Shown here piece by piece: positions 15,910-43,284 of a stretch of 55,227 nucleotides of DNA; position 1 is the first letter of the stretch, and each line of letters starts with the position of its first letter. Under the pieces are notes generated by a model, which worked only from the letters and a program-made list of their open reading frames with translations, ran no database searches and had not been told where the DNA came from. The translations under genes and the position numbers were made by a program. Origin of the DNA: Methylocystaceae bacterium (GTDB lineage: Bacteria > Bacillota > Syntrophomonadia > Syntrophomonadales > JBLNAA01); contig JBLNAA010000160.1 of the NCBI GenBank assembly GCA_050259135.1, positions 1-55,227 of the forward strand, read 5' to 3'.

Positions 15910-16302
15910 TTAAGGTATCTGAGTTTGAACCTGCCCGCTGAAAACAATTTGGATTACACCACCATAACTGCAGATCAGTTTAGAGCTATTATTAAGGGCT
16001 GGTTTGTTCGCAATCAAGATGGTTGGACAACCTGGAGCCCACGGTGCCGCTGTCATTGGTGTACATGGCATCGGTGTAAGTACCCCCAGGGCTGCTGCTG
16101 TTGCGGAAGCAACCGCTGGATTAGCCATGGAACTGCACATTCCAAACGGCGGTATATTTAAAAAGGATTTGTTATCCATAATAGTGGCTGCCGGCATAGT
16201 AGCATTTACCCGATCGGCTGGCAATACTACCAATGTGCTGGGGGCTAAACCAAAGCTGCACTGCATGGCCGCTCCATTGCAAACTAAAAAACCCATCCCC
16301 AT
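15910..16302 (-). CDS. DUF4280 PAAR-like spike tip protein
   Basis: VCNGAAMQCSFG, NIPPFGMCSSMANP, PMPCTP...WAPG, LICSYGGVIQI; AAGGAGG SD. Confidence 0.9.
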   Translation of the reverse strand: MGMGFLVCNGAAMQCSFGLAPSTLVVLPADRVNATMPAATIMDNKSFLNIPPFGMCSSMANPAVASATAAALGVLTPMPCTPMTAAPWAPGCPTILIANKPALNNSSKLICSYGGVIQIVFSGQVQTQIP

Positions 16303-16338: not shown

Positions 16339-19137
16339 CTATACTAATAAGACCCCATTCCATTTCTCAGGGGAACCATCTCTTTCAAACTCTTCACAGC
16401 GATAGAAATAGATACGGGCTATTTCATCGGCACGATTATGTTTGATAACATCGATAAACTTGCTGCGGGCGTCGTAGAAGTACCCATTCTGGAATAACTG
16501 TATACCTTCCTCGAATAATTCCCTGCTTTCTAACTTCAGATCCCGTATTTCTTCACTTTCACCTGCAAATATATCATACAAAAGTAAAGGTTCATCACGT
16601 CCCTCGGCTTGTATTCTGCCGAGACTGCGATATTCATAACGATGAGAATTTTCCATCGCTTTAAGGAAGTCTTCTGTAACTATGATCGAACAGGCCAGCT
16701 TATTGGTCAGTGATTGCAGGAACGCAGCCACATTGACATGATCTGAAATCACCGTCCCGGCCATTCGCTTTTCTTCACCGATAATTCCCAACATCAACGG
16801 TCCCTTGTGAATACCAACGCCGATGTCAATCGGTACATAACCAGCTCGTTTCCGGCCTGCATTATAATCTACCAATCGTTTGCGTAGTTCAATCGCTGCC
16901 TGCAGAGCCTGGTCAGCATGGTCAGGGAAAAGGGCCAGGAAGCCGGAACCAGTATATTTATCAATTAATCCATCATTGGAACTAATGACCGGTCCCATCC
17001 AACTCAGGTAGGACTTAATAAAATTAAAATTATCCTCTGGACTCATAGTACCGGAAAGCTGATAAAACGAATGGATATTAAGGGAAAATATACTCATGTC
17101 CTCTCTTACCTGATCCCCCAGCTGGACATCGATAATACTGCTCTTTCCTAATAAATTAAGAACTTGTTGAGGTACAAAACGGTAGTAGGCTTCACTCAGG
17201 TCAGTAATTTCTTGAATATAACTTCTGATATGATCCGCCATATCATTAACACTTGCTCCCAGGTCAGCTACTTCATCTCCCGTGTCAAGCGTAACCGCAA
17301 TATCCCAGTTACCCTGAGCTATTTCGGCTACACTGTTTCTCAACTGGCGGATTGAAAGCAGCTGGTAATAGGTGATTAACAGGAAAATGGCGATTATGGC
17401 CAGGGTGATCAGACTTATCTTTTTAGCTATATTTTTGAATAATGCCATCCTTTCCTGATTAAATCCGCTGCGATCCACACCCGATTCATAAATACCGATA
17501 ATCTTGCCCTGGGCATCAAAAATGGGGGCCATCGCAAACATCCAACTTCCATTTTCATCGTTGGCTTTATCAGTCACCATCTTTTTCGTATCCAAAACCC
17601 GTTGAAACTCGCCGGCAATCGTAATCGGGCGGTACATATTAACACTGTTATCATAATCAACAATGGCATAAAGCCGGTCATTTTCAAGCTTGTATATAGC
17701 AGTGTAAAGTCCGGCCTCATCCAGTTTGTCGTCACCATAGCTGCCTCGATGGATTTGCGCTTCAATCGTCAGGTTCCGCAGAAAACTATAGTCGGCATTC
17801 ATATAATCCTGCGGGCTGCTTATATTCTGCAGGCGTATCGGATCCAGCCGGTTTAATCCGGTACGCGTAAGCACCACCAGCTGTCGATAAACCTCTTTTT
17901 CCTCGCGATCGGCAAACTGCAGATAGGTAAACCAGGACAGAAATACCATGCCCACTATGATAACCGGAGTAAATACTACAATCTGTTTGACAATTAGAGA
18001 TACCCGGCGCTGCATTATTTCTATATACAAGTAGCGCAGCAGATATATAAATAGCCCTAGAATGGCCCAAGGCAGGCACCAAAAGAATAAGCGCTTCTGC
18101 GTAGATTTGGAAGGCTGGGTGACCGTATTTATCGTATCAGTCAATTGACCACTGGTATCTATCTCATATATTCGATCACGAAGTGCCACTGACAGGCTGC
18201 CATCTGCCCCGATTACCATGTCTTTTATTACCGATAGCACTTCATCCTTCCCCAGGTTAGCCTGAGAAAAAATGGTTTTTCCGGAACTCAGCCCACTGAT
18301 ACTCAGACAGCGAATTTCATTGGCAAAAGTATCGATAAAGTACAGCTTACCCTGTTTAAGCTTTAACTGGGTTGGAAAAGTCCGATCCGGGGTTTGGCTG
18401 GCCCAGCTAAGCCCCATTAAGCCAAAATCAGCAGGCCGTGGGTAAAGCAGCTTTGATTCTCCGTTAGCATTAATATTGAATATTTGTCCGCGTTGGGTGC
18501 AGTAGTAGATTTCTCCTGGCGTTGTCCCAGTAATATCTGCTATATAAGCATCGGAAGCAAGATAAGCAATAATATATTGATGGCGTGAATAATCCTGGAG
18601 GTTAATTGAATATAAATAAATCCGGCTGGGCTGCAGATAGTTAAAGTACAGGGAATCGTTCCTGACTTCCAGGGATTTTATATTGCCTGCCCTTAAAGGA
18701 CGTTGATTACCGCTATATTTTATCTGGTGCAGAACCCTGGACTGATTGCCATCAGCGGAAAAACGAAGAATATTTTCTCCTACTACATATATTCCTTTAC
18801 TATCCAGATCTGTACGGCACACATAAAGATTGCCCTTGCGGTCAGCCGCCAGCTCACTATATAAATACATTTTATTTTTATTACTGCCGGTGGGCTCGAT
18901 CAGGTATCGGCATTCACCCCGATTGTTAACTTTTATAATCTTTCTGCGTGCTTCCACAATCATATAAAGATTACCGTCAGCATCAGATGTAATAGATGAG
19001 AGATTTTGAACTGGCAGTCCTTTATTTAGAGGTGACTGAGACAGTAAGTCTTTATTTGCCAGCAGCAAGCAGAATAACACGACTAAGGTTCCCAGTAAAA
19101 CTAAAGGTAATACCAGTTTCCTATTCATCAATTCCAC
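16339..19137 (-). CDS. Membrane receptor with HAMP and degenerate class III adenylate/guanylate cyclase domain
   Basis: Four hydrophobic segments, beta-rich and Cache-like extracellular regions, HAMP (GDEVADLGASVNDM), YYRFVP linker, IDKY, IGVGIHKG..MLGIIGEE.R, TPR-like tail. Confidence 0.85.
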   Translation of the reverse strand: MELMNRKLVLPLVLLGTLVVLFCLLLANKDLLSQSPLNKGLPVQNLSSITSDADGNLYMIVEARRKIIKVNNRGECRYLIEPTGSNKNKMYLYSELAADRKGNLYVCRTDLDSKGIYVVGENILRFSADGNQSRVLHQIKYSGNQRPLRAGNIKSLEVRNDSLYFNYLQPSRIYLYSINLQDYSRHQYIIAYLASDAYIADITGTTPGEIYYCTQRGQIFNINANGESKLLYPRPADFGLMGLSWASQTPDRTFPTQLKLKQGKLYFIDTFANEIRCLSISGLSSGKTIFSQANLGKDEVLSVIKDMVIGADGSLSVALRDRIYEIDTSGQLTDTINTVTQPSKSTQKRLFFWCLPWAILGLFIYLLRYLYIEIMQRRVSLIVKQIVVFTPVIIVGMVFLSWFTYLQFADREEKEVYRQLVVLTRTGLNRLDPIRLQNISSPQDYMNADYSFLRNLTIEAQIHRGSYGDDKLDEAGLYTAIYKLENDRLYAIVDYDNSVNMYRPITIAGEFQRVLDTKKMVTDKANDENGSWMFAMAPIFDAQGKIIGIYESGVDRSGFNQERMALFKNIAKKISLITLAIIAIFLLITYYQLLSIRQLRNSVAEIAQGNWDIAVTLDTGDEVADLGASVNDMADHIRSYIQEITDLSEAYYRFVPQQVLNLLGKSSIIDVQLGDQVREDMSIFSLNIHSFYQLSGTMSPEDNFNFIKSYLSWMGPVISSNDGLIDKYTGSGFLALFPDHADQALQAAIELRKRLVDYNAGRKRAGYVPIDIGVGIHKGPLMLGIIGEEKRMAGTVISDHVNVAAFLQSLTNKLACSIIVTEDFLKAMENSHRYEYRSLGRIQAEGRDEPLLLYDIFAGESEEIRDLKLESRELFEEGIQLFQNGYFYDARSKFIDVIKHNRADEIARIYFYRCEEFERDGSPEKWNGVLLV

Positions 19138-19366: not shown

Positions 19367-21091
19367 TTGATGGAGAAATTACTTCTTAAAATATTTGGTC
19401 CGATAATAAAGCCCATTATCTCTGAAATCAGAAACCGGATTAAACAACTAAAAAAGCTCCCTATGACCATTATCCAGAAGCTTACCCAGGTTGTCCGGGA
19501 TATCTGGGCTAAGAAAGAGCCTTCTATTGATGACTACATCAGTTTCGGCAACCGTCTGGTTGCTAAAAAGCTGCTGGTTATCATACTGCTGATAGTTCTG
19601 GTTCTAACTTTCGGGATTTATAAATTTACCCCAATAGTAAGTACCAAAATAATGGGATACAAGATTATCCACCTGATCGGAAACCAAACCATTACTTATA
19701 CCGGCAAGGTCAAGATATATAACGAGCAAAATAAATTAATCTACGAAGGTGATATGGTAAGCGGTGTATATTCCGGTTATGGCAAGCTCTACGAGAGTCA
19801 AAGCCGTCTGACCTATGAAGGCCAGTTTAAAAACGGCGTCATGAATGGAAACGGTACCATATACTATGAAAATGGCAAAAAGAAATATGAGGGCAGTATC
19901 ATTAATGGAGTCTACGATGGACTGGGAAAACTATTTAATATGAAAGGCAAGTATATTTATGTTGGGCAGTTTGTCAGCGGCTGCTATTCCGGCCAGGGAC
20001 GAGAGTACTATATTAACAAAGGTATCAAATATGAAGGCAACTTCTTAAATAACCAATATGAAGGACAAGGTAAACTTTACAGTGAAGATGAAAAGCTAAT
20101 TTACTCGGGTCAATTCACCAGCGGTATATACTCCGGCCAGGGGGTAGAATACTGGCCTAACCAGGAAATAAAATACGAGGGTGCCTTTGTCGGCGGTAAT
20201 TATGAAGGACAGGGGAAACTGTTTACCGAGCAGGGGAAATTGGAATATCAAGGGGAGTTTAAAGCCGGGATGCCCAATGGTAAGGGTGAACTGTATGATG
20301 AAAATGGCAGTGTAGTTTATAAGGGTGAATTTATTAATGGGGCTCAGGCCGGTGAAGGTGAATTGGTATCAGAAACAGGGGCTGTTATTTATAAAGGAGC
20401 ATTAGTTAATGACCTTCCCGAAGGCCCGGGAGAAGCGTATAACGACGAAGGCGCCCTGATATATAAAGGGGAGTTTAAAGCCGGCCTTTATTCCGGAGCC
20501 GGCAGCGAATTTTATCCCAATGGCAAGGCCAAATATACCGGCACTTTTTTAGCCGGAGCCTATGAGGGATCCGGTCAATTATTCACGGAAGACGGCAAGC
20601 TCACATACGAAGGCAATTTCAGCGGCGGAAGTTTTAATGGCTTGGGCACCCTCTACAACAGCAATGAGGAAGTAATATACAAAGGATATTTTAAGAATAA
20701 CCAGCCTCATTATGCCGGCTTTCTCACCCTGTCGGAGAAAAAGATCGATGAGCTCCTGGGAGCATCTGAGGCGAAAAGTGATGCTGGCACCAGTCGTTTA
20801 ATAACTTATAAAGACATGGCTATGAGTTTTGAATTGTCAGTGCGCGGTCCCAAGGAAAATCCAACCGTTAGTGTGATTACCCTCACTGGCAAGCAGCAGA
20901 TTTTGGGTATCCGGTTGGATATGAACACCGTACAGATACAAAAATCACTGGGAGCTCCTGCTAAACGGGAGACCGTTACCAAAGGTCAGAGGATATATGA
21001 TATTTGGGAGTATCAGCGAGACGGCTCCGTCTATCGATTCTTCTTCAATAATAATCTAGTCGATTATCTGGAAATCCGCTCCGCCAGTTAA
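19367..21091 (+). CDS. Membrane-anchored MORN-repeat protein
   Basis: One TM (LLVIILLIVLVLTFGIY), then 14 tandem 24-aa repeats of type YxGxGxxYxxxGxxxYxGxFxxG, then a small C-terminal domain. Confidence 0.85.
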   Translation: MMEKLLLKIFGPIIKPIISEIRNRIKQLKKLPMTIIQKLTQVVRDIWAKKEPSIDDYISFGNRLVAKKLLVIILLIVLVLTFGIYKFTPIVSTKIMGYKIIHLIGNQTITYTGKVKIYNEQNKLIYEGDMVSGVYSGYGKLYESQSRLTYEGQFKNGVMNGNGTIYYENGKKKYEGSIINGVYDGLGKLFNMKGKYIYVGQFVSGCYSGQGREYYINKGIKYEGNFLNNQYEGQGKLYSEDEKLIYSGQFTSGIYSGQGVEYWPNQEIKYEGAFVGGNYEGQGKLFTEQGKLEYQGEFKAGMPNGKGELYDENGSVVYKGEFINGAQAGEGELVSETGAVIYKGALVNDLPEGPGEAYNDEGALIYKGEFKAGLYSGAGSEFYPNGKAKYTGTFLAGAYEGSGQLFTEDGKLTYEGNFSGGSFNGLGTLYNSNEEVIYKGYFKNNQPHYAGFLTLSEKKIDELLGASEAKSDAGTSRLITYKDMAMSFELSVRGPKENPTVSVITLTGKQQILGIRLDMNTVQIQKSLGAPAKRETVTKGQRIYDIWEYQRDGSVYRFFFNNNLVDYLEIRSAS

Positions 21092-25471: not shown

Positions 25472-26620
25472 TTACTTGATTGACTGATATATCTCATCTG
25501 CCACCAGGAGAATCTCAAACGGAGGTTTATAATCTATTTTCCTGGCAACTTCCAGGTTTAAGGCAATATGAGGTACATTTTCATACACCTGCAGAAGTTT
25601 TCGAGATGAGGTTCCTTTTAGAATTTTAATCATATTATTAGCCCCGAACTCTCCTACCCCACTGAAGTCAGCCCGGGCTACGCTCATCAAGGCACCGGCG
25701 GTAACCTCTTCGGTTCCCAACTGAGAAAAAACCGGAATCTTCTTTTCATAAAATGGCTGCAACAATTCAGGTAACCGAGCCGGGTCGATGGGGGCCATGG
25801 TCAAATACATGGCGTCCACCTCTTGTGCCAATTGACGATGAAGTGCCAGCAGATCACGATAATATCTTTCCTCATCCGCTTTGTTTACCGGTTCCACAAT
25901 CTGCATCGACTTCACCTCAAATCCCTGTTCCTTGGCCAACTCCTCGGCATCATCAACCGCGGCATATACTCGGCCCAGAGGTGAATTGGCATAAACCATT
26001 CCCATCCGTTTAAAATGAAAGAGGTCATAGAAAACCGTCATTTGGCGTTTATATACTCGGGCATCCATGTGCGCCCAGATATGATCACTGCCGGAATCAT
26101 TTTCTGATTGTATGATGCCGGAGCGAACTGCATTACTGGTTGAAAATACCATTACCGGCACGGTGTGCTGGTCATTAGCTAACAGCTTTCCCGCTGAAGT
26201 TCCCATGCATATAACCAGGTCAATATCCCTTTGCTGGGCCAGGCGGGTTATTATGCCCTGTTTCTCGGGTTCACTCATCTCACTCAGGGTGTAATGACCG
26301 TCTTTAACAAACTCAAGATATGGTGAGATATCCCTGGTTGAAAGCCATTCCCACATGGCGGTGGTATCCAACTGCCCTTCCTGGTACGGTAAACCCTGGG
26401 TACTGGTAATCCATCCTGCTTTTTGCAGTCCTTGAATCAAACCATAAAGAGTTCCCGAGTAATTAATCCAGGGTTCCGTCTCACAATAAGCGATCCGATA
26501 TTTATGCGCCAGTTCACTTTCTTGGTTGGAAACCCCATTGACGGCTACCAGTGGTTGGGGTATCACTAATATGGATAATGCGAGAATTAAGCAGGCACCT
26601 ATTCTCAATAATCTTTTCAT
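25472..26620 (-). CDS. Orphan ABC-type substrate-binding protein (ABC_sub_bind-like)
   Basis: Signal peptide; [47 protein letters not shown]; ATG 26620 follows GGAGGGAG. Confidence 0.8.
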
Positions 26621-26634
26621 GATCTCCCTCCGGT

Positions 26635-28194
26635 TCAGGCTTTCTTGTAGGCCCACCAGCGTATCCGGGCCTTGGCGGCTGTAGTAGTTTGACAGCGAAT
26701 ACCGATACGGAAAGTGCCCCTATCCGGATACAGTACGCTTCCAATCGCCATACGCGGCACCAGTGATTCATAATTGCTCTTCTGGAAAACCTCATAAGCT
26801 CCATAGAAGATCTGTTCACTGTGCCCGGTTACCCGATGGTCTTCCTCTTTACTTTTCTCTTCTATTCCGGCTTCAATATAAACGGGTCCATTCCCGAGTC
26901 CATGCTCAATCTCCTCGGAAAAATAGCTCTTACCCGCTTTGGGATTGGCCTCCATATCAATTTCCACCACCCCGGTACTGATTAGGGTGGTTCCCAAGCG
27001 GGGCCTGGGTATCCCCAGGTTAAAATCAAGCTGATTATTTTCCGGATGATATCTGACATCCAGACGTGGTGTTTCCTCAGCATCCATTAAGTAAGCTGAA
27101 GCTTTAGTCTGGTACGGTCCCTGTGATTTGTCGGCCCCCAAAATGCCGAGGTTAAACAAATCAGACTGATTATAGGCATATTCATTAAAAGGAACCGGTT
27201 CCACCTTTTCAATCATAAAACTGGGTCCAATCTGGGTTAGACTGATACGAGCGAGATATATAGCCTGATCTTCCTGGTCCAGATACTGATCCAGGCTCAA
27301 ATTAAGGTAATCATTAAGGATTCTTTCCCGAACGGGTTCAGCAACTATTTGCAGCACCTGGCTGCAATCAACTTCCGGCTCGACTAGCTTTTCGCCCATT
27401 TGAATGCGCATTTGGCGGTTTTTAACCTGCACATTATCAACCAAGCCGGCAGTAGTACCAGCTCGGAATGAATATTTAACCTGGTAAGAACATTCCTGTT
27501 CCTGCTCCGGTTCCAGGAAAGTAATCTTGCCCCCTTCTTTACCGTCAGCACCATAAATAAACTCTCCGCTCAATTCGTATTCAATTTTAAGCCGCGGTAC
27601 CTGCAGCGTCTTCTCCACCATTAAGATAACCTCAAAAATGTCACCCGGATTCACATAGCGGGGGCACTTCTGCCAGATACGCAGCTGTTCATCGCTGTAC
27701 AGGAGACTGGTATCCTCCCGCAAACGTGAGAAACCAAAGGTTGCTGGATCAGGAGCCTCCTCGCGGATAAAAAGATGATAACTTTCCTGAATACGATTAT
27801 ATTCACCGACTTCCTCCGGTCGGGTGGAAGACCCGGCTACTGAATATACGGGCTCCTTGCCTTTTTCGTCATAGGCAATGCACAGATAAATGTTTTTGGC
27901 ATAATCATTACTGACAAAGCCATCAATCATGGATAATTTCTGGGTAACCGGTGAAGCCACAACAATTTCCCTGCCGAAGTAGTCAAGGGCCATACCTGTC
28001 TCAACCGAGATGGTCTTATCATCAACTGCTACAACACGCAAGCCGCATACCACACCAGCACCATTTAGCAACCGATTTATCATCCGGCGTTTATCATTAA
28101 AATACTTTTGCTCGGATTCAAAGTCTCTTACCGTGAGCAATTTACCATAAAAATAACGATTCCTTTCATGGGGATAATACCTGGGGTTTTTCAC
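26635..28194 (-). CDS. eCIS tail fibre / distal baseplate-associated protein
   Basis: N-terminal ERNRYFYGKLLTVRDFESEQKYF...GVVCGLRV...GMALDYFGREI; GTG 28194 follows AAAGGAGG (in-frame TTG at 28293 also possible). Confidence 0.7.
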   Translation of the reverse strand: MKNPRYYPHERNRYFYGKLLTVRDFESEQKYFNDKRRMINRLLNGAGVVCGLRVVAVDDKTISVETGMALDYFGREIVVASPVTQKLSMIDGFVSNDYAKNIYLCIAYDEKGKEPVYSVAGSSTRPEEVGEYNRIQESYHLFIREEAPDPATFGFSRLREDTSLLYSDEQLRIWQKCPRYVNPGDIFEVILMVEKTLQVPRLKIEYELSGEFIYGADGKEGGKITFLEPEQEQECSYQVKYSFRAGTTAGLVDNVQVKNRQMRIQMGEKLVEPEVDCSQVLQIVAEPVRERILNDYLNLSLDQYLDQEDQAIYLARISLTQIGPSFMIEKVEPVPFNEYAYNQSDLFNLGILGADKSQGPYQTKASAYLMDAEETPRLDVRYHPENNQLDFNLGIPRPRLGTTLISTGVVEIDMEANPKAGKSYFSEEIEHGLGNGPVYIEAGIEEKSKEEDHRVTGHSEQIFYGAYEVFQKSNYESLVPRMAIGSVLYPDRGTFRIGIRCQTTTAAKARIRWWAYKKA

Positions 28195-28328
28195 TTCACC
28201 CTCCTCCTTTCTGATAAGCCGCCCGTATAATTGAGTCCCCGGAAACTGTATCCTAAAGCGCCAGATTACCACTTTCCCTGTATCATTCACCAACCTCTGC
28301 TCCCCTTTAAAGCAGAACCTGTAAACAG

Positions 28329-30419
28329 CTATTTTAAATGAGCGTCAAGTTCCATACGGCTGTGCGTATCAAAACGGTTGTCCCGCCCCCGATCAACAAT
28401 AACTGAACTAAACGGCATGGAAGATTTATTATCCAATCTCAATAGTGACAGCTCTGACAGATAGGTGTTGATACCTAAATAAGAATGCATATCCATGTAC
28501 ATCCAGGGCTGCAATACTACGAGATTAGCTTCCGTAAAAGCCGGCTTTTCTTCATCAATAATTTTCTGCAAAGTAGCTAACTGAGCCGAAGTTGGTACCT
28601 TATCCTGTTTCACTAATATGGTAAACCCATAAGGGTTCTGACCATAAAGTTGGGACATAATATCCTTAATTTCCTGTATCTCCTGCAGATATTTGTACTG
28701 GAAATGCTCAACGATAAAAGGTCTCTCTCCGGTATAGATAGCGATAATCTCTTCCATACCTTGGCGGGTACCCCGCATTTTATAAAGCGAAGGTGCCGCC
28801 ATCAGCAAGCAACGAATTTGTTGTTCACTCCAGTTCTCATCCACCCTTAAATCCAGCCAGCTGGCCAACCAGTTTAAAAAGGGTCCAGAAGCTGCTTCCG
28901 GGTCAAATATTTTGCTTACCTGATCTATCTGTTCTTCCATCCCCTGCAGGAAAGTATCAAATAATGATAAGAAGCGTTCCAGGAAATCACGGCTGGTTTT
29001 ATCCTCCTGATAAACAGCCGGCAAATAACTTAACAGCGACATACGCGGGAAATATATTCTAACCTTCTTTAAGACAGGCGTTCTGCTTTCACTGCCAATC
29101 AGTTCGACCTTTACCCACAGATAGCGTCCCCGGGCACTCGGTAACAGCATGTCCTGCGGATTAATCAGTTCCTGGATCCAAAGAGGCTCCAATAATCCCA
29201 GTTTTTCATGCAGCGGCAGACTCTGATCTGCTAAACACGCTTCGATATTTATTAGTTGGTCATCGATGACCACTTCTTGGTTATCATTGCTGAAATAACT
29301 AAGCCTGATCTGGGTATCATCCGGAATGTCAGCATCCAGGTTAATCCGATGCCACTCCATTTCCGGTACGGTGCTGTCCATCACCGGAAAAACGTAAACT
29401 CCGTGGGGTCGCTCGGTATGGTCAAATCGAATTCCCTCCTGCCGCTCCAGAATACTGAGTAAGCAGCGGTAGCGATCCCAGATATATATCTGGTTATTTT
29501 GGTCTACCCATAGTTGGTCGATGTTTCCGTGGTAAGCGGCTAGAGCCGCGGTTTCCTGTCTGGTAAATCCAATCCTCAAAACTCGCTTACTGTCTTCAGT
29601 ATCTGAATGATAACTGACAGCTGTATAGACATTGCCGTCATTATCAACACCCAATCCAGTAGCTTGAGACGGCAGGGAAAGACTGTCTTCATCAATCAGA
29701 TTGCCGTCGGGTGTGAAAATCCATAGTTGGCCGGTTAAGCTGTCCATAACATAAAGCTTCCCTTCCCGGCCTGAGGAAGCCACTACCCGATCGCTCCTCA
29801 CCGGCGATATCGGCTTTGACAGGTGAAAGCCCGACGGTACAGGTAATCTGCGTACCTGCCCATCAAAGGTAACTTTAAGTATTTCCAGCGGAATTTCACC
29901 GGTTACATTAGATTGCTCCCTGTAATTAACCAGTGAATATTCCGGCACCGTGATCACAAACAGCTGTTCTGTCTCATTCGCTGCCATGGTCAGGGGGTCA
30001 CCGCCATAGAATTCACGGTTAATCCAAAGAATCTGCCCATTAGATGCCGATATGGCAATAATTGCCGCCCGACTGTAATCCAACACAAATAGTGTATTAG
30101 CGGCAAATTGCATACACGTATCGGAGCTGAATAACCCATGTCCTTCTTTTAATAAAAGGGTGGTTTGGTGATTAAGAAAATCATAAAGCCATAGGTTGGT
30201 GGCCTGATCCAGCAGGAACAACAGTCCGAATGGCCCGCTGCACAGACTGGTAATCGGTTCCGTTATACCCGAATCAGACTGCAAAATAGTACGGTATAAA
30301 CAGTATTTTTGGTCCGTCATCAGACTGACCCCCTGCTCACTGAGCATAAGGTTGTCATTATGGCCGCGATCCCAATCAGATTTTTTATTCAGCGCCAAAA
30401 AACTAAATTTACCGTACAT
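28329..30419 (-). CDS. Phage tail protein (P2 gpI-like) with N-terminal beta-propeller-like region
   Basis: C-terminal YLPAVYQED...FLERFLSLF...FLNWLASWL...YKMRGT; N-terminal NHL-like repeats (LYVMDS, GLGVDNDGNVY). Confidence 0.75.
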   Translation of the reverse strand: MYGKFSFLALNKKSDWDRGHNDNLMLSEQGVSLMTDQKYCLYRTILQSDSGITEPITSLCSGPFGLLFLLDQATNLWLYDFLNHQTTLLLKEGHGLFSSDTCMQFAANTLFVLDYSRAAIIAISASNGQILWINREFYGGDPLTMAANETEQLFVITVPEYSLVNYREQSNVTGEIPLEILKVTFDGQVRRLPVPSGFHLSKPISPVRSDRVVASSGREGKLYVMDSLTGQLWIFTPDGNLIDEDSLSLPSQATGLGVDNDGNVYTAVSYHSDTEDSKRVLRIGFTRQETAALAAYHGNIDQLWVDQNNQIYIWDRYRCLLSILERQEGIRFDHTERPHGVYVFPVMDSTVPEMEWHRINLDADIPDDTQIRLSYFSNDNQEVVIDDQLINIEACLADQSLPLHEKLGLLEPLWIQELINPQDMLLPSARGRYLWVKVELIGSESRTPVLKKVRIYFPRMSLLSYLPAVYQEDKTSRDFLERFLSLFDTFLQGMEEQIDQVSKIFDPEAASGPFLNWLASWLDLRVDENWSEQQIRCLLMAAPSLYKMRGTRQGMEEIIAIYTGERPFIVEHFQYKYLQEIQEIKDIMSQLYGQNPYGFTILVKQDKVPTSAQLATLQKIIDEEKPAFTEANLVVLQPWMYMDMHSYLGINTYLSELSLLRLDNKSSMPFSSVIVDRGRDNRFDTHSRMELDAHLK

Positions 30420-30451
30420 CTAAGTCAATCACACCTCTCAAGGACAGTTAC

Positions 30452-32677
30452 CTAGAGATCTTTGCGGTTGATTATCTCGATTTCATGGTCACCCGGATAG
30501 ACTAATCCACAGGGAGGAAGTTCAACATCTCCACTGAGTTCCCGACGTATCCCACTGCCTTCGGCAATCAGCCACAACTCTTTTACATACTCCACTCCCG
30601 GAATATTATTAATAACTTCATAAATGTCGCCCCGGTAAACAGTGCGGCCAAAGGGCCAGCCTCGGCTCCAATCATCCCGATCCAGGGGCTGTAAAAATCG
30701 GTTAAGTTCTTGAACAATTTTTCTCTGTCCCCTGACGGTTCCTGAGGCTACCACCACTACCGCAGACACACTCACCCGGACATAGTCGGGATCTACAACA
30801 TGAACTTCGGTAGTCAAAAGCCGATGGCGATTCAGATGCCTTAGAACAGTTTCCCGGAACCCGGTGCTGGGGAGTGGCGTCAGGTTTTCACTGTATGGCA
30901 TTACGGCCACTGTTACCTGTGCTTCTGCGGTCCGGTCAGGGTAATTTTTCAAACCTGGTTTATAAAGCGGAACTGCTTTAACCCGTGCTACCCTAAGTCC
31001 AGGAGTCTGCAAGGCCAGTATTTCAAAATCATCAGCCGTGACTGCCCGATGTGGGCTTTGCCGTTCGGCTTTAAGCCGCTGCTTGGCCTCAGCTATAGTT
31101 TCCCGGGCGGTTCCTCCATAAGCTGGCCGGCGATTGCCCACACCAAGAGAAGCCAGTTCAGCTTCGTCGCTAATCAGCTTATTTATTTCGTGTTCTTTAA
31201 CATTGCCCCTGAGGCCTCCGCCAATTTTATAGCCCAATACTAGAAGATTGGGTTCGTCGGCCCGGTCCGGAATTATTCCATTCTCATTGTTGCCAAAGCA
31301 AATCAGACTCTGTTCGGCATCTACAATATAGTGGCGATCAAATGAACTTGACGCTGTGAAGTCATCCACAGCTTTCCAGTCCTGCCACAGTATTTCTCCG
31401 CAAACCGGTGACCTCTTGCCCACTTGCAGAATCAAATCCGACTCTAATAAGGGGGATCCAGGTAAATCAAAAGACTGCCCTGGCAGACCATTACTTTGCC
31501 CTAACCAGCGTTGTTCTTTAAACCCGGGCTGGTAAGATATAAGACGAATATTATTGCTCCCCGCCGGAGGTATCATTCCTTTATGATTATCACCGAATTG
31601 AATTATTAACTCCTGATTACCGTTTGGTTTAAGCAGAAATACCCTATCATCAGCATTACTTTGTGAAAAATCAATGACCTCATCCCAGAAAACCCAATTT
31701 CCACTGGTATTCCTTACCTGCAGCTCGTTATTACCATAAACCGCCAAACTGCTGTCTGCCTTAAACTGCATATTCATCAGACCACTGCTGGAAAACTCCT
31801 TAACCTCACTTAATGTAGCCTGTTGTTTGACCGGAACCGTATTAAAGCAGATGTCTTCAATCCGAGGTGACAATTCTAATACATCATCTTCCAAACAACA
31901 GCTGAGCCAAAACCGCTGCTGGTCAGCTGCTGGACCAATCGCGGCGGCCTCCATCGCATCAGGAATGACAAATTTAATCCGCCCACTGCGATTAAAGTGC
32001 AGGCTTTCATCCAGCATAATATTCAGGGGTTTCCAGCCATTCCAGCCATAATAGCTCCAACTGATACGAGCCGGGGGAACAAAGTCATTTTCCTGGTCCT
32101 TCGTCGGACCTGGTTTGATCGGATAGCTTTCAAACAAATGAATCGCCAGGCATAACTCAAGGCCGGTCGGCAGTGCCTGATCCAGCCCGATTAGCAGCCG
32201 GTTGCCTTTTTGGGCATTACGGCCAAAAGCATAATAAAATAAGCCGCCAGTCTCGTTGAAGGAGGTAAAATCACGGTAGTCCTTTTCGGAATATACTAAA
32301 ACCCTATCTATATGATAAGGAAGCAGCGTAAGTGACTCAGTAGTTTCAAATATCTGATCACTAGCCGCTAATTGACTACCCGTCGGCAAGGACATCATTC
32401 TATGTACATCGCTGAAGGTAACATCGGTTCTTGCTGATTCTGTACCACCCGGCTTTATACCTAAAAGTTTAAGAAACTTCAGTTCATTCCGATCTGTAAT
32501 TTGATTGAGATAATACTGCTGCATCTCCGTAAGCCAGGCTAACATTTCGATTAATGTAATCCCCGGGTCATGATAGTTTTCGTCAGTCCACCCAGAAAAT
32601 AACTGGGGAATCATTTTTCTGGCGTCTTCAACTATATCCTGGAAGTACAGATCATCCAGTTCTGGCAGCGGCAACAT
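30452..32677 (-). CDS. Baseplate J/gp47-like wedge protein
   Basis: LPELDD, WTDENYHDPGITLIEMLAW, SNGLPGQ, FGNNENGIIP, GGGLRGNV, RAVTADDFE, GWPFGR. Confidence 0.88.
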   Translation of the reverse strand: MLPLPELDDLYFQDIVEDARKMIPQLFSGWTDENYHDPGITLIEMLAWLTEMQQYYLNQITDRNELKFLKLLGIKPGGTESARTDVTFSDVHRMMSLPTGSQLAASDQIFETTESLTLLPYHIDRVLVYSEKDYRDFTSFNETGGLFYYAFGRNAQKGNRLLIGLDQALPTGLELCLAIHLFESYPIKPGPTKDQENDFVPPARISWSYYGWNGWKPLNIMLDESLHFNRSGRIKFVIPDAMEAAAIGPAADQQRFWLSCCLEDDVLELSPRIEDICFNTVPVKQQATLSEVKEFSSSGLMNMQFKADSSLAVYGNNELQVRNTSGNWVFWDEVIDFSQSNADDRVFLLKPNGNQELIIQFGDNHKGMIPPAGSNNIRLISYQPGFKEQRWLGQSNGLPGQSFDLPGSPLLESDLILQVGKRSPVCGEILWQDWKAVDDFTASSSFDRHYIVDAEQSLICFGNNENGIIPDRADEPNLLVLGYKIGGGLRGNVKEHEINKLISDEAELASLGVGNRRPAYGGTARETIAEAKQRLKAERQSPHRAVTADDFEILALQTPGLRVARVKAVPLYKPGLKNYPDRTAEAQVTVAVMPYSENLTPLPSTGFRETVLRHLNRHRLLTTEVHVVDPDYVRVSVSAVVVVASGTVRGQRKIVQELNRFLQPLDRDDWSRGWPFGRTVYRGDIYEVINNIPGVEYVKELWLIAEGSGIRRELSGDVELPPCGLVYPGDHEIEIINRKDL

Positions 32678-32698
32678 TAAGCTTACCTCCTGACCACT

Positions 32699-35600
32699 TT
32701 AGCTCCGGACTTTAACCTTAACCTGATGCTCGCCGTTTAATACATAACCATGCGCAATAAAATTCAATTGATTGGGATCAATTTCAATACGTTCCCCGTT
32801 AACCAGCTTGTGAACCGTCATTGAGATATTCTCGATATAATTAACCTCACTAATCGATTTTAATAAAGTGTACATAACCGAAATATGTGGGTATTCCCCT
32901 ATATTCCAACCTCGATCAGAGGATTGCGGCTGCAGGAACTCGCGTATCTTGGTTAGTGCTTTGGTCTCCACCGAAACCATGTTGTCAATATTGTTGGTAA
33001 CTAATACAGCAATTGCAGATATTTCAAGATACAGCGGCTCAATAACTTGAAATTTTCCAGGGTGCAGAAGGTTACCGCTGGTTCTCTGGTAAAGATATCG
33101 CTCAACCTCCTGTTTGAGAGCAGGGAAAGTCAATGAAGCTGTAATACCGCCACGAGGCAGCACTACCAGGGTAATACAGCCGCTTTCTCTCTCCCCATGC
33201 CAATTAGTGTTGGGCAAACACTTAACCCGGGCCACGTTTCTGGATACCTCGCGAGCCATTATCTCAAAGTCTTCAGCAGTAACCGCCCGGCCATAATTTT
33301 TCAAGGTCTGGGGGCCACGGCGCATGGCTTCATCTATACTCTCTCGGTCGCTTCCGCCGCAGGCTGCCTGGGGGTTAAATACCCCATCAATGTAAGGAAG
33401 GGAGTCACGCAGCAGATTAATTTCCTGAGCGGCTATATTGCCCTGGTTACCACCGCCGACCCAGTACCTCACCTCGATATTGTTGTTATTATCCCGAGGT
33501 GGAATTTTGCCATGCTGGTTATCACCAAAACTAATCCTCCCCGAAGAACGATCCATGGTATAATGACGCGCACCAACTGCCGAAAGGCTAAGATCCTCCA
33601 CCCGTTCCCACTTAACCCATAATTCCAGGAGATTGCCCCAATCGTCACGAAGTTCTCGCTTTATTAAATTCTTATCAGACAAGAGGGCTTGTTTTTCCCA
33701 TTCATCAAGGGATTTTGCTTCCTCCACCCATACCTCTTCTGTAACTACTGGTGTACGAGGCAGGTCAAAGCCGAAATAAGCTTCACCACCCGGGTTAGAC
33801 AACATTACACTAGCCGCGTTTTCCTGCTGGACAACCTGAGTAGTATTCATATATAAGCCTTTAACCATCGGCAGGACTGGCCGGTTTTCCACACGGCCAA
33901 ATTTGCTGTCATAATTTACTACCCGCATCCAGTACAAGCTGCGGCCAAAAATAGTCATTCGCGTAAAGTCAGGGGGTCCGCCAAAAACCAGAAGCCCGCT
34001 GCTGCTCAGGTTGTTAGTTTTATCTAAGGCTTCGAGCTTTGACCATTTAGCCGTAAAGGTACTCTGACTCGAATATTCCCAGTCGAGGGCCGGGCTGTCG
34101 TCCGGATCATAAGATCGCTCCCGCAGGGAGAAAAACATACTTATCGGGCCTTTGAGCGGGGGCTGTTCAAACCCCAAATAGGTTGCCGGACAAGGTAAAT
34201 CAAGTTCCTTTAACGGTTGAGCTGGATTAACCTTATTTTCCTTAAGCTCCTGATACAGATCATGGTACTCAAGATTGTTTAAGCTTATAAAAGAGGTTGG
34301 TCTAATGCTCTCATTTGTATAACGGTAACTCATCTGCACTTTTTCCATCCGGGGAACCTGATACACCCCATTGGGTGCATAAAGATTGTAAATGCTTAAC
34401 ACCCGGGCTCTTATCCAATAGTTCATCTGATCGTTCACCATACCGAGCCGCATATCTTCGGGGCATCTAAAACTGATGGTCTTACCCCGTTCAGAAGGCT
34501 GCAGGAATATATCTTCATATTGAGAGTCTTTAAAGAGGCGCATCCATCCATTGCCGTTCCAATATTCCCACACTACTCGCTGGATACGAATGTTCGGCTT
34601 TTCCGGTTCTACCAGGGCTGATCTTTTCATAATCATCTTCCACTCAATAGCTGGAGTACTGCCATTACTCAGCATGTGTGGCTCATGGGTTAATTTGAAA
34701 GATATACTTATGTCGGCTTTCTTTTTAGAGAACGCTTCCTCACTGGCCAGGTAAAACGTATCATAAAGGCCGAAAAACTCACCCATCGGATAACAATCTT
34801 CCACATTTAGGGGTATATCATTGTAAAACATCAGCTCTGGAACCAGGCTGGATTCATCATCTTCTGCCAGAGTTGCCGCTTTAATGTTAACTGCATCAAT
34901 CTCAATGTTGGATAAGGCCTTGATTTTCCCTGGCTGTACCCGGCAGCAAAGCCAGCGACTATTAACACCATTCACCTTGGTAAAATCAATAAGCCCGAGC
35001 TCATGCTTATGCAAAATAATTCGGTTAGACTTCACCGCCGCTTCAGTAAAAGGCTGCCAGCCTGTGCCATTGTAATATGACCATTCAGTATACTCAGGAT
35101 TTGCCAGTAATTCACTGTTCTCTAGTTCCTGGAATTGCTGTCGGGAATTGATGACTTCCAATTCCAGGCTGGCTCTCCCCCGAATATTAAGTAAGTCAGC
35201 TTCACCCAAATAAAAACTGTGCTGTTGAAGATTCGCTCCGTTAAAGCTGTCCATTAGTGAAAACTCCTGACCAGAAGCATCCGGATTATCGATGAGGCTG
35301 GCTGCCGGCAGTTCCACTACCCGATCATATTCACCGCTGCTGTTAAATATCGCGATGGGTACCGCTGGACTCACTAACAGATTGCTTTGGGTTTCGAATA
35401 CCAGCTGCTCCCCAGCTTTGGTATTAGCCAGTGCCTGGGTTCCGGCTGGTACCAGAACAGATTCGCCATCCTGTGAACTCAGTCTAAAAGTGAGGAAGGA
35501 AACCGCCGGGCAGGCTGGAAGCAAACTTATATCCATCATATTAAGAAAGGCGGCCAGATTCCGGCGAGGAACCTGGTTAAACCGCTTAATTGTCCCATCC

Positions 35601-35746
35601 AACATCCGGCTGAATATGAGGAATAAGGCTGTGCCCGCATCCGGATCTTCCGGAGAAAAGCGCCACTCCGGAGTATAAAAAGGCAGCATTGCCTTTAATT
35701 CCTGTATAATTGCTCTGCTATCACGTTGATCCAGGGGTGGAAGCAT
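32699..35746 (-). CDS. Baseplate J/gp47-like large wedge protein
   Basis: PPLDQR, YTPEW, DAGTAL, VPAGTQ, FETQ, FGDNQHGKIPP, GGGNQGN, RAVTAEDFE. Confidence 0.88.
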   Translation of the reverse strand: MLPPLDQRDSRAIIQELKAMLPFYTPEWRFSPEDPDAGTALFLIFSRMLDGTIKRFNQVPRRNLAAFLNMMDISLLPACPAVSFLTFRLSSQDGESVLVPAGTQALANTKAGEQLVFETQSNLLVSPAVPIAIFNSSGEYDRVVELPAASLIDNPDASGQEFSLMDSFNGANLQQHSFYLGEADLLNIRGRASLELEVINSRQQFQELENSELLANPEYTEWSYYNGTGWQPFTEAAVKSNRIILHKHELGLIDFTKVNGVNSRWLCCRVQPGKIKALSNIEIDAVNIKAATLAEDDESSLVPELMFYNDIPLNVEDCYPMGEFFGLYDTFYLASEEAFSKKKADISISFKLTHEPHMLSNGSTPAIEWKMIMKRSALVEPEKPNIRIQRVVWEYWNGNGWMRLFKDSQYEDIFLQPSERGKTISFRCPEDMRLGMVNDQMNYWIRARVLSIYNLYAPNGVYQVPRMEKVQMSYRYTNESIRPTSFISLNNLEYHDLYQELKENKVNPAQPLKELDLPCPATYLGFEQPPLKGPISMFFSLRERSYDPDDSPALDWEYSSQSTFTAKWSKLEALDKTNNLSSSGLLVFGGPPDFTRMTIFGRSLYWMRVVNYDSKFGRVENRPVLPMVKGLYMNTTQVVQQENAASVMLSNPGGEAYFGFDLPRTPVVTEEVWVEEAKSLDEWEKQALLSDKNLIKRELRDDWGNLLELWVKWERVEDLSLSAVGARHYTMDRSSGRISFGDNQHGKIPPRDNNNNIEVRYWVGGGNQGNIAAQEINLLRDSLPYIDGVFNPQAACGGSDRESIDEAMRRGPQTLKNYGRAVTAEDFEIMAREVSRNVARVKCLPNTNWHGERESGCITLVVLPRGGITASLTFPALKQEVERYLYQRTSGNLLHPGKFQVIEPLYLEISAIAVLVTNNIDNMVSVETKALTKIREFLQPQSSDRGWNIGEYPHISVMYTLLKSISEVNYIENISMTVHKLVNGERIEIDPNQLNFIAHGYVLNGEHQVKVKVRS

Positions 35747-35785
35747 ATTCTCCCTCCGTCAAAAAAGCCATACTGGCTGGAATTT

Positions 35786-36181
35786 TTACCGGGTACCTTC
35801 GTTGATGTAGAAGGGATAAACTAAATTAAACAGGTTATTGGTTGATCTTACGGCGTATTTGATATTAATCCATAACTGTCCGGAGTTGGTGTCAGCCTCA
35901 ACCTGTACCTCAACCTTAGTCACTCGAGGTTCCCAGGCCAGGATGGCATTTTTTAAGTCAGCTTCAATTACTCCCAGGGTAGTGGGGTCGGTCAGGCCAA
36001 AAACGAAGTCATTAAGTCCACTGCCGAAATCAGGCCGCATAACTCTTTCTCCGCGGTAGGTCATAATGATAATCCGAATAGCTTCGGCAATATCATCTTC
36101 GCCTTCAGACATCTTAATGCGCCCGGTTACCGGATCAACCTGAACCGGGAACTTCCAGCCGCGTCCTAAAAAGTTACTCAT
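35786..36181 (-). CDS. GPW/gp25 baseplate protein
   Basis: FLGRGWKFP, IIIMTYRGERVMRPDFG, WEPRV, NLVYPFY. Confidence 0.93.
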   Translation of the reverse strand: MSNFLGRGWKFPVQVDPVTGRIKMSEGEDDIAEAIRIIIMTYRGERVMRPDFGSGLNDFVFGLTDPTTLGVIEADLKNAILAWEPRVTKVEVQVEADTNSGQLWINIKYAVRSTNNLFNLVYPFYINEGTR

Positions 36182-36205
36182 CCCTATCCCCCTAAGCCAC
36201 TGGCA

Positions 36206-36958
36206 CTAGTTGATCTTGACCATAGCACCTTTGATATTCACCATGCCCCCAGCCTTAACATCCAAGGTGGCATTGGCATTCAGCTTTAAAGCCGTAGTTG
36301 CCTGAATATCAATCTGGTTGGCTGATATCTTTAGATTGCCGGCAGGTGCATTGATCGATATATTACTGCCATTTATCTCAATAACGCAGGAATTCACTTT
36401 AAGCGTTACCTTGCTGCCAGCCTTTAATTCAATACTGTTAGCCCCATTATCGATGGTTAACGTATTTTGGGCATTGTCGTCCTTAACTTCAATCTTTTTA
36501 TTAGCATCATCCAATACCAGCTTCTTACCTTTGGGAGTATGAAGTTCGATACTTTCTTTACCCTGGGTGTCATTCAAGATCACTTCATGTCCTATTCGGG
36601 TCTTAAATTTACGGATGTTTACTTTACCGTCAGCAATGGCATTGGCCTCCGGAATCTTATCCTTACCATTCCACAAGGCTCCAATAACGATAGGCTCCTC
36701 CACATTACCATGCTGAAAGGCCAGTAATACTTCATCATTAACCTCGGGCAAAAAGAATATCCCCCGTTCGGGGCCGGCCATGGGGGTAGCAACTCGAATC
36801 CAGTCGCTCTCCTGTGCAGTATCCCACAGCACATACTTCACCTTTATCCGACCCTTTTTATCCGGGTCATTAATATTAGTTACAATTCCTACGGTTACGC
36901 CGGTAACTTTAGCACTATTAAGATCGCTGGGGGTTGGCAGTGAATAAACAATATTCAA
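36206..36958 (-). CDS. Baseplate assembly protein V / VgrG gp5-like spike
   Basis: GIVTNINDPDKKGRIKV, WIRVATPMAG, FLPEVNDEVL, VIGALWN, then beta-helix repeats ending GAMVKIN. Confidence 0.9.
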   Translation of the reverse strand: MNIVYSLPTPSDLNSAKVTGVTVGIVTNINDPDKKGRIKVKYVLWDTAQESDWIRVATPMAGPERGIFFLPEVNDEVLLAFQHGNVEEPIVIGALWNGKDKIPEANAIADGKVNIRKFKTRIGHEVILNDTQGKESIELHTPKGKKLVLDDANKKIEVKDDNAQNTLTIDNGANSIELKAGSKVTLKVNSCVIEINGSNISINAPAGNLKISANQIDIQATTALKLNANATLDVKAGGMVNIKGAMVKIN

Positions 36959-38046
36959 ATGGCGTTACCTCCAATCGATATGGTGGTGGTGTACCCGGAT
37001 TCATCAATACAATGTCGGGCCGACAAAACATAATACTGCTGACTGAGCTCTGAGCCCAATCCCGACAATTGTATGAATTTGCCTGCCCTTATCTCGGGCA
37101 TACCAATACAAGTCGCTTCACCGCTAACCAATTTCATGGCACTTCTGTCCTTAATTGCTTTAGCCTCGATCTCCAACTGATTTTGCGTCCGGGCTTCCGA
37201 AAAATAGTTATCTTCCACCTTGCCCAGCAGCTTATTTAACAGGGCAGTCCCGTCATCACCTGAGCCAATCTTACTGATTGATCCAGAAACTCCTAACAGA
37301 GCCGCTTTAGTTTGGGGATCCCAGCTCCTCACCTTCACAGTTCCGGTTTGATCACTGATGTCATCTTCCAGGTACAAACTCAGCAGGGTCTGCCCCCAGA
37401 CCAGGGTAACGGATGACGAGCCCGCACTCGGAGGTTTACGAAAATGTGCTTGATCGCCGCTGACAAAGAACTCATAACCGTTTCTCTCGGCCAGCCAGCG
37501 GAGAAACTGATAATTACTTACCGCCACCTGCTGGAGTGTGGTGTAGACTATGCTGGTGCTGTCCACTTTGGCGGTAAGTCCACCTTCACTTATTAATTGG
37601 GAGGCTACATCACTGTCTTTTACATCCTTGAAAACCCGTGATTTAACCCCTTTCATCAACTTAAACGATTTGTCCATCCCGGAAACCACTACTGTAGTTT
37701 CCTCTTCCGGGGTCAATTCATAGCGTAATGAAGTAATATAACCCTTAAATACCGTTTCGAGAACATCAACATATCCGGGTTTTATCTCTATTTCTTTGCC
37801 GATAGCGATATTAGCCAATTGAAATTGTTTAATTAACGGACTAAACGCATTGACCACCCTGAAGCTGAACGAATCGGCTTTATCTAAACTGTTTTCTATG
37901 GTCAGGTTGTGAATTATTAAATGAGATTCTTTAAGGTCCTGGCCATCAATCAGTATCTGAAAAGCAGGGGCCACGAATTCTTTATACTTGGTGGTCAAAT
38001 CTGAAACTGCATAAGTTCTGTTGTCAAGTATGGTTAAATCGGACAT
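36955..38046 (-). CDS. Phage late control D / VgrG gp27-like hub
   Basis: GYVDVLETVFKGYI, VSGMD, SNYQFLRWLAERNGY, VRSWDP, GMPEIRAG; 4-bp overlap with the spike gene. Confidence 0.87.
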   Translation of the reverse strand: MSDLTILDNRTYAVSDLTTKYKEFVAPAFQILIDGQDLKESHLIIHNLTIENSLDKADSFSFRVVNAFSPLIKQFQLANIAIGKEIEIKPGYVDVLETVFKGYITSLRYELTPEEETTVVVSGMDKSFKLMKGVKSRVFKDVKDSDVASQLISEGGLTAKVDSTSIVYTTLQQVAVSNYQFLRWLAERNGYEFFVSGDQAHFRKPPSAGSSSVTLVWGQTLLSLYLEDDISDQTGTVKVRSWDPQTKAALLGVSGSISKIGSGDDGTALLNKLLGKVEDNYFSEARTQNQLEIEAKAIKDRSAMKLVSGEATCIGMPEIRAGKFIQLSGLGSELSQQYYVLSARHCIDESGYTTTISIGGNAI

Positions 38047-38050
38047 AATT

Positions 38051-38671: not shown

Positions 38672-38699
38672 TAGGGGAAATCACTCCTTTTCCACTATC

Positions 38700-42128: not shown

Positions 42129-42182
42129 CTTAGATTCCCCCAGAGGAAGCCATGATCTGAACCAGTGTCTCAGCCGCCGCCA

Positions 42183-42632
42183 TTATGATTTTTTAACCGT
42201 TAATCCCTGATGAACAATTTCCAGGGATTCGATGGCCACCTCAATGGCATCGGCTTTTAGCTGTGGCCCCACCCATTTAACCGGATAAGACTGCAAAAAA
42301 TTCCAGCGGTACTTTTCTTTCCCACTGGCATCAAGCAGGATAATGGAACCGTTTTTACGCTGAAACTTACCCTTGATAGTCGCTTCATACCAGTTCCAGA
42401 GCTCAGAACCGTTGGTAAATCCACGTCTTAAAACCAGAGGTGGGTACTTACGTATCGTCACAAAGTGGTGTTCGTAATCATTGACCCCGCCCTCGCGGAT
42501 AACCTGATACTCCGTCTCGGCTTCCAGTCCTGAGACTTCTGAAAAATCCGCAACGAGAAGCCCATCAAGCTCAACCTTAAAGCGAAATGCTACCCCGGGG
42601 TCTTTTCCAGATCTCGACACCTTATTGGTCAC
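42183..42632 (-). CDS. Tail tube protein 2 (T4 gp19-like)
   Basis: DP..AFRFKVELDG, FSEVSGL, IREGGVN, LVLRRG, YPVKWVGP.L, IESLEIVHQG. Confidence 0.92.
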   Translation of the reverse strand: MTNKVSRSGKDPGVAFRFKVELDGLLVADFSEVSGLEAETEYQVIREGGVNDYEHHFVTIRKYPPLVLRRGFTNGSELWNWYEATIKGKFQRKNGSIILLDASGKEKYRWNFLQSYPVKWVGPQLKADAIEVAIESLEIVHQGLTVKKS

Positions 42633-43257: not shown

Positions 43258-43284
43258 TTAAATACAACTCGTTTCTGATTAGGA

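Follow-up and report, generated by a model that had tools for sequence, protein, structure and literature searches.

What does a gene for an apparent adenylate cyclase do beside a contractile injection system (CIS)? We address this for a 55,227-nucleotide stretch of DNA, hereafter the window, which is contig JBLNAA010000160.1 of assembly GCA_050259135.1, a Methylocystaceae bacterium by name and a member of the Syntrophomonadales in the GTDB lineage. The window contains a complete CIS locus and, at 16339..19137 on the minus strand, a gene for a predicted membrane receptor carrying a class III cyclase homology domain. The original prediction, made from the sequence alone, called the product a pseudo-enzyme with three catalytic residues replaced. 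We find the replacements to be real and the loss to be shared by its close orthologues. It is probable, with considerable room for doubt, that this conserved pseudo-cyclase receptor has been recruited as a signal-transducing membrane sensor or adaptor of a Firmicutes CIS and is read out by protein contacts.

The open reading frame (ORF) runs uninterrupted over 932 codons from a GTG, so the frame is intact as predicted. Annotation probably starts the gene at the ATG of codon 4, because the database copy (P0002), 100% identical to the product of this ORF, has 929 amino acids (aa). Residue numbers throughout follow the 932-aa frame, as in the original prediction.

Class III cyclases have a catalytic set of six positions, comprising two metal-binding Asp residues, a substrate-specifying pair, and the transition-state Asn and Arg. 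We located them in residue-by-residue HMMER alignments to the solved cyclases Cya2 (6fht/2w01, E 9e-16) and OaPAC (5x4t, E 3.6e-14). Asn687 (17077..17079, minus strand, as are all codons here) stands where the first metal-binding Asp belongs, with 'ifslnihsf' aligned against 'iltsdlrgf' and 'vffsdivsf'. Ser731 (16945..16947), 44 residues after Asn687, stands in place of the second metal-binding Asp, with 'idkytgsg' against 'idkfmgdg' and 'vtkfigdc'. Phe806 (16720..16722) takes the place of the transition-state Arg of N-x-x-x-R, with 'vnvaafl' against 'vnvaarl'.

The other three positions are kept: the substrate-specifying Lys727 (16957..16959), the second substrate-specifying position Thr795 (16753..16755), aligned to the Thr of OaPAC, and the transition-state Asn802 (16732..16734). 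The pair of Lys727 and Thr795 matches the Lys/Thr of OaPAC. Hence the alignments place all three replacements at Asp, Asp and Arg as the original prediction had read them, with exact codon coordinates, and they also show the Lys and the Asn that it had taken as retained. The sole other cyclase domain of the 2.38-Mb genome, in a 631-aa CHASE2 cyclase on contig C21, has all six residues. Since the three-residue pattern recurs in every close orthologue while this CHASE2 cyclase is complete, the pattern is not chance. Because both metal Asp residues and the transition-state Arg are gone, the homodimer should make neither cyclic AMP (cAMP) nor cyclic GMP.

The fold itself is kept. The degenerate domain matches PF00211 over residues 678-849 (16591..17106, minus strand) with 39.9 bits against a cut-off of 21.9, and with 44 bits in a six-frame search of the genome. 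It spans residues 676-856 in an AlphaFold model, and the model of residues 636-932 has a pLDDT (predicted local distance difference test) of 89 and a pTM (predicted template modelling score) of 0.85. Its structural matches include CyaB 3r5g (VIA Z 20.7, root-mean-square deviation (rmsd) 2.5 over 185 residues) and Cya2 2w01 (Z 20.6).

Is the loss peculiar to this copy or a property of its kind? A search with residues 640-932 returned 204 proteins at E<=0.001, of which the best 120 were used for the alignment and the tree. Among these best 120, 79 distinct rows lack the Asp/Asp/Arg set and 41 have it. The degenerate rows are ~900-990 aa long with the same architecture, except two partial sequences of 551 and 582 aa, and the named ones belong to Syntrophomonadaceae, Pelotomaculum, Tumebacillaceae, Paenibacillus and Cohnella. 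The intact rows comprise ten ~921-aa proteins, from Brevinematales or Brevinematia where named, and shorter or multi-domain cyclases.

In the maximum-likelihood tree of the cyclase domain and tail, one branch divides the 79 degenerate from the 41 intact rows. Its bootstrap and SH-aLRT (Shimodaira-Hasegawa approximate likelihood ratio test) supports are 100/100, it appears in 100% of 200 bootstrap trees, and a single change is needed. The tree is unrooted; as intact cyclases are the rule in the family, we interpret the change as a loss. An intact receptor-cyclase with this architecture seems to have given rise to the dead form in a single event. A profile search of 1.84 billion representatives, with 9,588 members at E<=1e-30, shows how large the parent subfamily is, and 45 of the 156 domains in the best 150 proteins of that search are degenerate. 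Four proteins of this subfamily (P0123-P0126) carry two or three tandem cyclase domains, at least one of them degenerate at the six catalytic positions, and are possibly internal pseudo-heterodimers like the mammalian enzymes.

The same holds at 80 species-representative genome loci, many of them from closely related Paenibacillaceae: none is intact at the catalytic set. Position 687 is Asn in 73 and position 727 Lys in 74 of the 80. At position 731 Asp never occurs; the residue there is Ala in 74, Pro in 4, Ser in 1 and Gly in 1. Position 795, Thr in the window protein, is Asn in 65, and position 802 is Asn in 55. Position 806 takes eleven different residues, with Arg in 4.

The frame is intact in all loci examined. 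The Nei-Gojobori ratio of nonsynonymous to synonymous substitution rates (dN/dS) in the dead domain is 0.012-0.127 for the 13 of 22 orthologue pairs with computable dS, the others being saturated. The original prediction proposed checking whether the loss is conserved in relatives and named, as the contrary case, orthologues that keep the residues around a single relaxed copy; we find 79 of 120 rows and 80 of 80 species loci degenerate, none of the loci intact, and a dN/dS far from relaxed. As judged from these sequences, the loss is old and conserved, not decay. The protein is rightly classed as a pseudo-enzyme, its replacements being genuine, old and conserved and the domain evolving under purifying selection. 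The proteins are publicly named 'adenylate/guanylate cyclase', which is probably misleading in genome annotation.

What, then, is the dead form kept for? Its neighbourhood points to the injection system. The gene for DUF4280, a PAAR-like spike tip (15910..16302, minus strand; PF14107, 122.8 bits), starts 36 nt downstream of the pseudo-cyclase gene, behind a strong ribosome-binding site and with no terminator-like site between. It is the sole PAAR-like gene found in the window and lies outside the main CIS operon. Divergent from the pseudo-cyclase gene is one for a MORN-repeat membrane protein (19367..21091, plus strand; PF02493), with ~66 N-terminal aa, one transmembrane (TM) segment and then the repeats.

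We tested this linkage by tblastn with the window proteins on the 80 loci and their flanks of up to 10 kb, so that CIS genes lying further away may be undercounted. The MORN protein has a match in 76 loci and DUF4280 in 75. They are followed by the CIS13-like (53) and CIS12-like (49) proteins, the two Baseplate_J proteins (37 and 32) and eCIS_core (28), while sheath, tube and AAA match in 3 loci each. The MarR and molybdopterin-enzyme genes, downstream in the window, match in none. Two of the five loci without a DUF4280 match (L005, L056) have <1.3 kb of upstream sequence. At L044, L009 and L014, AAA, Pvc16_N, sheath or tube genes are its immediate neighbours. The pseudo-cyclase is kept with the same neighbours from Syntrophomonadaceae to Paenibacillaceae.

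The gene also follows the sheath across genomes. In a sample of 121 genomes from the order to which the window belongs, the gene is present in 14 (E<=1e-50) and a sheath in 18 (E<=1e-40), all 14 being among the 18, and the gene is found in 0 of the 103 sheath-less genomes. Together with the DUF4280 and MORN counts, this upholds the assignment of the gene to the CIS. A decaying gene, or a functionless chance neighbour of the injection system, might be suspected from the 4 of 18 sheath-bearing genomes that manage without it. It is contradicted by the intact frames, the low dN/dS and the same neighbours over such distant families, and we give it almost no credence.

The intact orthologues, HAMP receptor cyclases of ~921-945 aa, offer the natural comparison. 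They resemble the window protein in length and in the order of propeller, Cache-like domain, HAMP, linker, cyclase domain and tail, with 29-32% identity along the whole protein and 45-47% across the C-terminal 293 residues. They differ in that they keep D-K-D-T-N-R, score 72-78 bits with PF00211 against 36-48 bits for the degenerate ones, and are not CIS-adjacent. Through them we found ten metagenome loci of the Brevinematales type, four of which hold the whole gene. A comparison of 27 window proteins with these ten loci gave no DUF4280, MORN or CIS structural match; the sole match is a weak one to AAA at a distant locus, and the neighbours are housekeeping genes. At five of these loci (L083:7023-9968, L084, L085, L086, L088) the intact orthologue is preceded by a ~980-aa ORF with 61-64% identity between loci and no Pfam family, which may encode a partner of the active receptor-cyclase.

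Within the order, the 14 gene-bearing genomes hold 16 copies, 14 degenerate and 2 intact. Both intact ones are second copies, in G002 and G005, with no CIS gene in the 17-20 kb around each. The degenerate copy of G005 adjoins MORN and DUF4280 on the contig that also carries the sheath. The simplest history is that a receptor-cyclase was duplicated, and that one copy lost catalysis and was recruited to the CIS locus, the data being compatible with either order of these last two steps.

Could the dead domain instead pair with an intact one, either that of the C21 CHASE2 cyclase or that of an intact paralogue, and tune the output of cAMP? Mammalian cyclases consist of two unlike halves, and their heterodimer holds a non-catalytic pseudo-site; in the window protein, both symmetric sites of the homodimer would be dead. 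The window genome does have one intact cyclase and two cyclic-nucleotide (cNMP)-binding proteins, and G002 and G005 carry intact and dead copies of the same architecture. However, by the alignment neither composite site would be complete, because the dead domain lacks the Asp pair and the Arg. Moreover, no intact protein of this architecture is encoded in the window genome, the gene distribution follows the sheath, and one sheath-bearing genome, G011, has a CIS without any cyclase domain. Such a regulatory heterodimer is therefore improbable.

Cyclic nucleotides come up again in the neighbourhood at 63 of the 80 loci (e.g. L016:13199-16393, L007, L022, L045), outside the window. There the pseudo-cyclase is followed by a 165-aa GNAT protein and then by a ~1064-aa protein with a TLC/MFS-like membrane domain, HEAT repeats and a cNMP_binding domain. 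The phosphate-binding-cassette Arg of this last domain is replaced in 63 of 63 (Ser in 59, Ala in 4), and the Glu is kept in 31. From these residues, the 63 loci probably hold a dead cyclase beside a dead cNMP receiver.

The downstream protein invites the view that the cyclase is still active through non-canonical residues, with the cNMP-binding-domain protein as the receptor of its product. Against this, an alternative catalytic set should be conserved, whereas position 731 is mostly Ala and position 806 takes eleven residues. The linked domain uniformly lacks its phosphate-binding Arg, and the PF00211 scores drop from the intact to the degenerate range. We regard a still-active cyclase as very improbable, more so than the heterodimer.

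If neither catalysis nor pairing accounts for the gene, the architecture indicates what it may do. A full-length AlphaFold model from 87 relatives (mean pLDDT 85.4) predicts a four-pass membrane receptor with a propeller, a Cache-like domain, HAMP, a linker helix, the class III cyclase domain and a three-helix tail. For the whole protein NCBIfam offers no family, giving HAMP-region matches only, all sub-threshold. TM1 (residues 2-27) and TM2 (343-374) flank an extracytoplasmic beta-propeller of residues ~40-340 (18118..19020, minus strand), modelled with pLDDT mostly >85. Its Foldseek matches are virginiamycin B lyase and NHL propellers, and in Pfam it reaches SGL and DUF5074, both sub-threshold.

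TM3 continues as a long helix (381-430) into a second predicted extracytoplasmic domain before TM4 (residues ~433-555; 17473..17841, minus strand). This one is Cache/PAS-like by modelled secondary structure, a helix-plus-sheet domain, with sCache_3_3 at 16.9-20 bits under a cut-off of 28.8. TM4 and the HAMP helices occupy residues 556-654 (helices 556-607 and 622-654). The HAMP domain that the original prediction had invoked is present at residues 589-638 (17224..17373, minus strand; PF00672, 36.5 bits, cut-off 25), positioned after the last TM helix. Because the N-terminus is positively charged, we infer that the propeller and the Cache-like domain lie outside the cell, with HAMP, the cyclase domain and the tail inside.

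Between HAMP and the cyclase domain runs a linker helix (residues 641-677; 17107..17217, minus strand), which we take to be the so-called cyclase transducer element. It is the best-conserved segment of the protein. Mean pairwise identity in the dead clade is 0.66 for the linker, 0.59 for the tail, 0.53 for the cyclase domain, 0.49 for HAMP, 0.43 for the Cache-like domain and 0.32 for the propeller.

The C-terminal tail, residues 850-932 (16342..16590, minus strand), is modelled as three confidently predicted helices, 862-883, 887-900 and 905-920, and a short strand at 929-931. The original prediction saw it as TPR-like and as a possible CIS contact; Pfam gave no match at E<=5 on residues 847-932, TPR included, with three helices modelled and the fold search hardly sampling the tail. 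We compared the 79 dead with the 41 intact domains, taking >=85% as conserved. Of the 17 positions conserved solely in the dead clade, 11 lie in the tail between residues 883 and 930: Q883, G885, Y888, D889, R891, I898, R902, F911, Y912, E916 and L930. Those conserved solely in the intact enzymes include F685, E696, R806 and K812. This concentration in the tail fits a new contact surface.

The same comparison bears on another possibility, that the dead site binds ATP or another nucleotide without turnover and that its occupancy is the signal for the CIS, the domain then serving as a sensor of energy or nucleotides and not purely as a contact module. Lys727, Asn687 and Asn802 are widely kept, and the dead clade shares the beta1-alpha1 loop motif and 45 positions with active relatives. 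On the other hand, nucleotide binding in the class III family normally needs metals, whose two ligands are lost here, position 795 is Thr in the window protein and Asn at most loci, and position 806 is unconstrained. A solved P. aeruginosa protein that shares the cyclase fold (6yii; Z 15.2, rmsd 3.1 over 183 residues) is, by its title, a 'class III adenylyl cyclase-like ATP-binding protein'. A nucleotide sensor is on balance unlikely, though clearly less so than the heterodimer, and it is compatible with readout by protein contacts rather than exclusive of it.

We therefore return to the receptor as a sensor or adaptor of the CIS read out by contacts. The pseudo-cyclase would be kept under strong purifying selection as a CIS accessory gene, with the DUF4280 spike tip and the MORN protein. 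Its ectodomains may respond to a cue from the envelope or from outside the cell. HAMP and the linker helix may then move the pseudo-cyclase dimer as in the active enzyme, a relay suggested by the linker being the most conserved segment. The readout would go through protein contacts, mainly at the clade-specific tail surface, and not through a nucleotide product. These contacts could control how the CIS docks, assembles or fires at the membrane. We also weighed the product as an injected effector or toxin and rejected this, as a four-pass 932-aa membrane receptor is implausible as tube cargo; known cyclase toxins belong to another cyclase class.

Several points weigh against this sensor or adaptor role. 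The presence of a sheath in 14 of 14 gene-bearing genomes overstates independence, because the genomes compared are related. Of the four sheath-bearing genomes without the gene, one (G011) is 100% complete; none of the four has a pseudo-cyclase-type domain, while DUF4280 is still in two. The gene is therefore a frequent accessory, not essential to the CIS lineage. A diverged degenerate copy (G002:C6) has no CIS gene in the 14 kb examined. An equally long tail is also found in active cyclases of the subfamily, so that what is particular to the CIS-linked form is the set of conserved residues in the tail rather than its presence.

The domain itself leaves further room for doubt. Its inactivity is read from residues alone. 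The conservation of Lys727 and Asn687 after the loss suggests that a ligand, perhaps a nucleotide, may still be bound. Likewise, cyclic-nucleotide signalling could still be involved, because a cNMP-binding-domain protein follows the gene at so many loci, though without its phosphate-binding Arg.

We know of no link between non-catalytic cyclase-fold proteins and injection systems. How does the receptor compare with what is described for CIS? The nearest functional parallel is CisA of Streptomyces coelicolor, a membrane protein from CIS clusters required for firing and contraction, whose extracytoplasmic domain is sensor-like and whose cytoplasmic part is predicted to contact the baseplate (PMC12237407). 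The pseudo-cyclase resembles CisA in being a CIS-cluster membrane protein with predicted extracytoplasmic domains that may act as sensors; the parallel would be one of role and not of ancestry, and no homology is claimed. By its published architecture, CisA differs in being single-pass, with an unstructured cytoplasmic N-terminus, a solute-binding-like C-terminal domain and no HAMP or cyclase fold.

Other conserved non-structural genes adjoin the operons of extracellular CIS (eCIS), namely the regulators GerE/LuxR, BTAD and RfaH (Geller et al. 2021, PMC8213781). They are DNA-binding transcription factors, whereas a DNA-binding domain is absent from the pseudo-cyclase. Neither the main text of that survey nor that of PMC8651086 mentions the word 'cyclase', and in PMC8894135 it refers to two-hybrid plasmids only. 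Among the papers listed in our literature searches, no title or abstract links a cyclase or pseudo-cyclase to CIS; supplementary domain tables may list one without remark. The receptor probably joins two known kinds, the bacterial pseudo-enzyme and the CIS membrane accessory.

The rest of the CIS locus lies to the right of the MORN gene. The structural operon (25472..45522, minus strand) holds the sheath, two tube genes, a 1142-aa ORF, the tube-LysM and GPD genes, the spike OB-fold, gp25, two Baseplate_J genes and the CIS12-like and CIS13-like genes. Genes for eCIS_core, a Pvc15-like AAA+ ATPase and a Pvc16-like protein follow at 47485..52456 on the plus strand, assigned by domain matches. The CIS13-like (26635-28293, minus strand) and CIS12-like (28329-30419, minus strand) genes match NCBIfam CIS13 and CIS12 below the cut-offs, with 112 and 241 bits, and the CIS12-like protein has an additional weak NHL repeat match. 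The search for a tail-fibre family gave no match among the window genes, several window ORFs having no Pfam match. Elsewhere, the sheath gene of G039, a genome that carries the pseudo-cyclase, matches as two pieces with one in-frame TGA (G039:C75:25726-27410), which could reflect a broken gene or a sequencing error.

Between the operon and an alanine racemase gene lie two further genes. One (22998-25409, minus strand) encodes an 803-aa protein, a weakly Cache-like N-terminal half fused to an MFS transporter, and overlaps by 59 nt the other, for a 258-aa GNAT protein (22280-23056, minus strand). We considered the fusion as a relative of the Paenibacillaceae TLC/HEAT/cNMP protein, and no relation was detectable (BLASTP E 0.62). 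The alanine racemase gene (21132-22265, minus strand) recurs in or beside the CIS accessory region at five of the 80 loci (L003, L004, L009, L047, L075). At a Peptococcaceae-type locus (L014:4949-6844), a Na/sulfate-symporter-like protein with an N-terminal cNMP_binding domain adjoins the eCIS_core gene.

A bolder extension is that the pseudo-cyclase, the MORN protein and DUF4280 form a membrane docking-and-trigger station. The CIS would then be a cell-anchored injection or lysis device, with the HAMP-driven switch of a cyclase reused mechanically or allosterically and the Paenibacillaceae cNMP domain as a dead receiver. We hold this to be speculative and rather doubtful. If true, a phage-tail-like particle becomes a signal-gated device in single-membrane Firmicutes.

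The control of Gram-positive CIS and how they meet the membrane are largely unknown, and the one described adaptor, CisA, is Streptomyces-specific. The receptor family described here, found in 80 or more species that range from Syntrophomonadaceae to Paenibacillus and Cohnella, is strongly conserved and genetically tied to CIS. It is also a clear-cut example from nature of a bacterial cyclase turned pseudo-enzyme, for which an intact sister lineage is at hand for comparison. The family is thus a testable candidate for a sensor or adaptor of Firmicutes CIS in culturable hosts.

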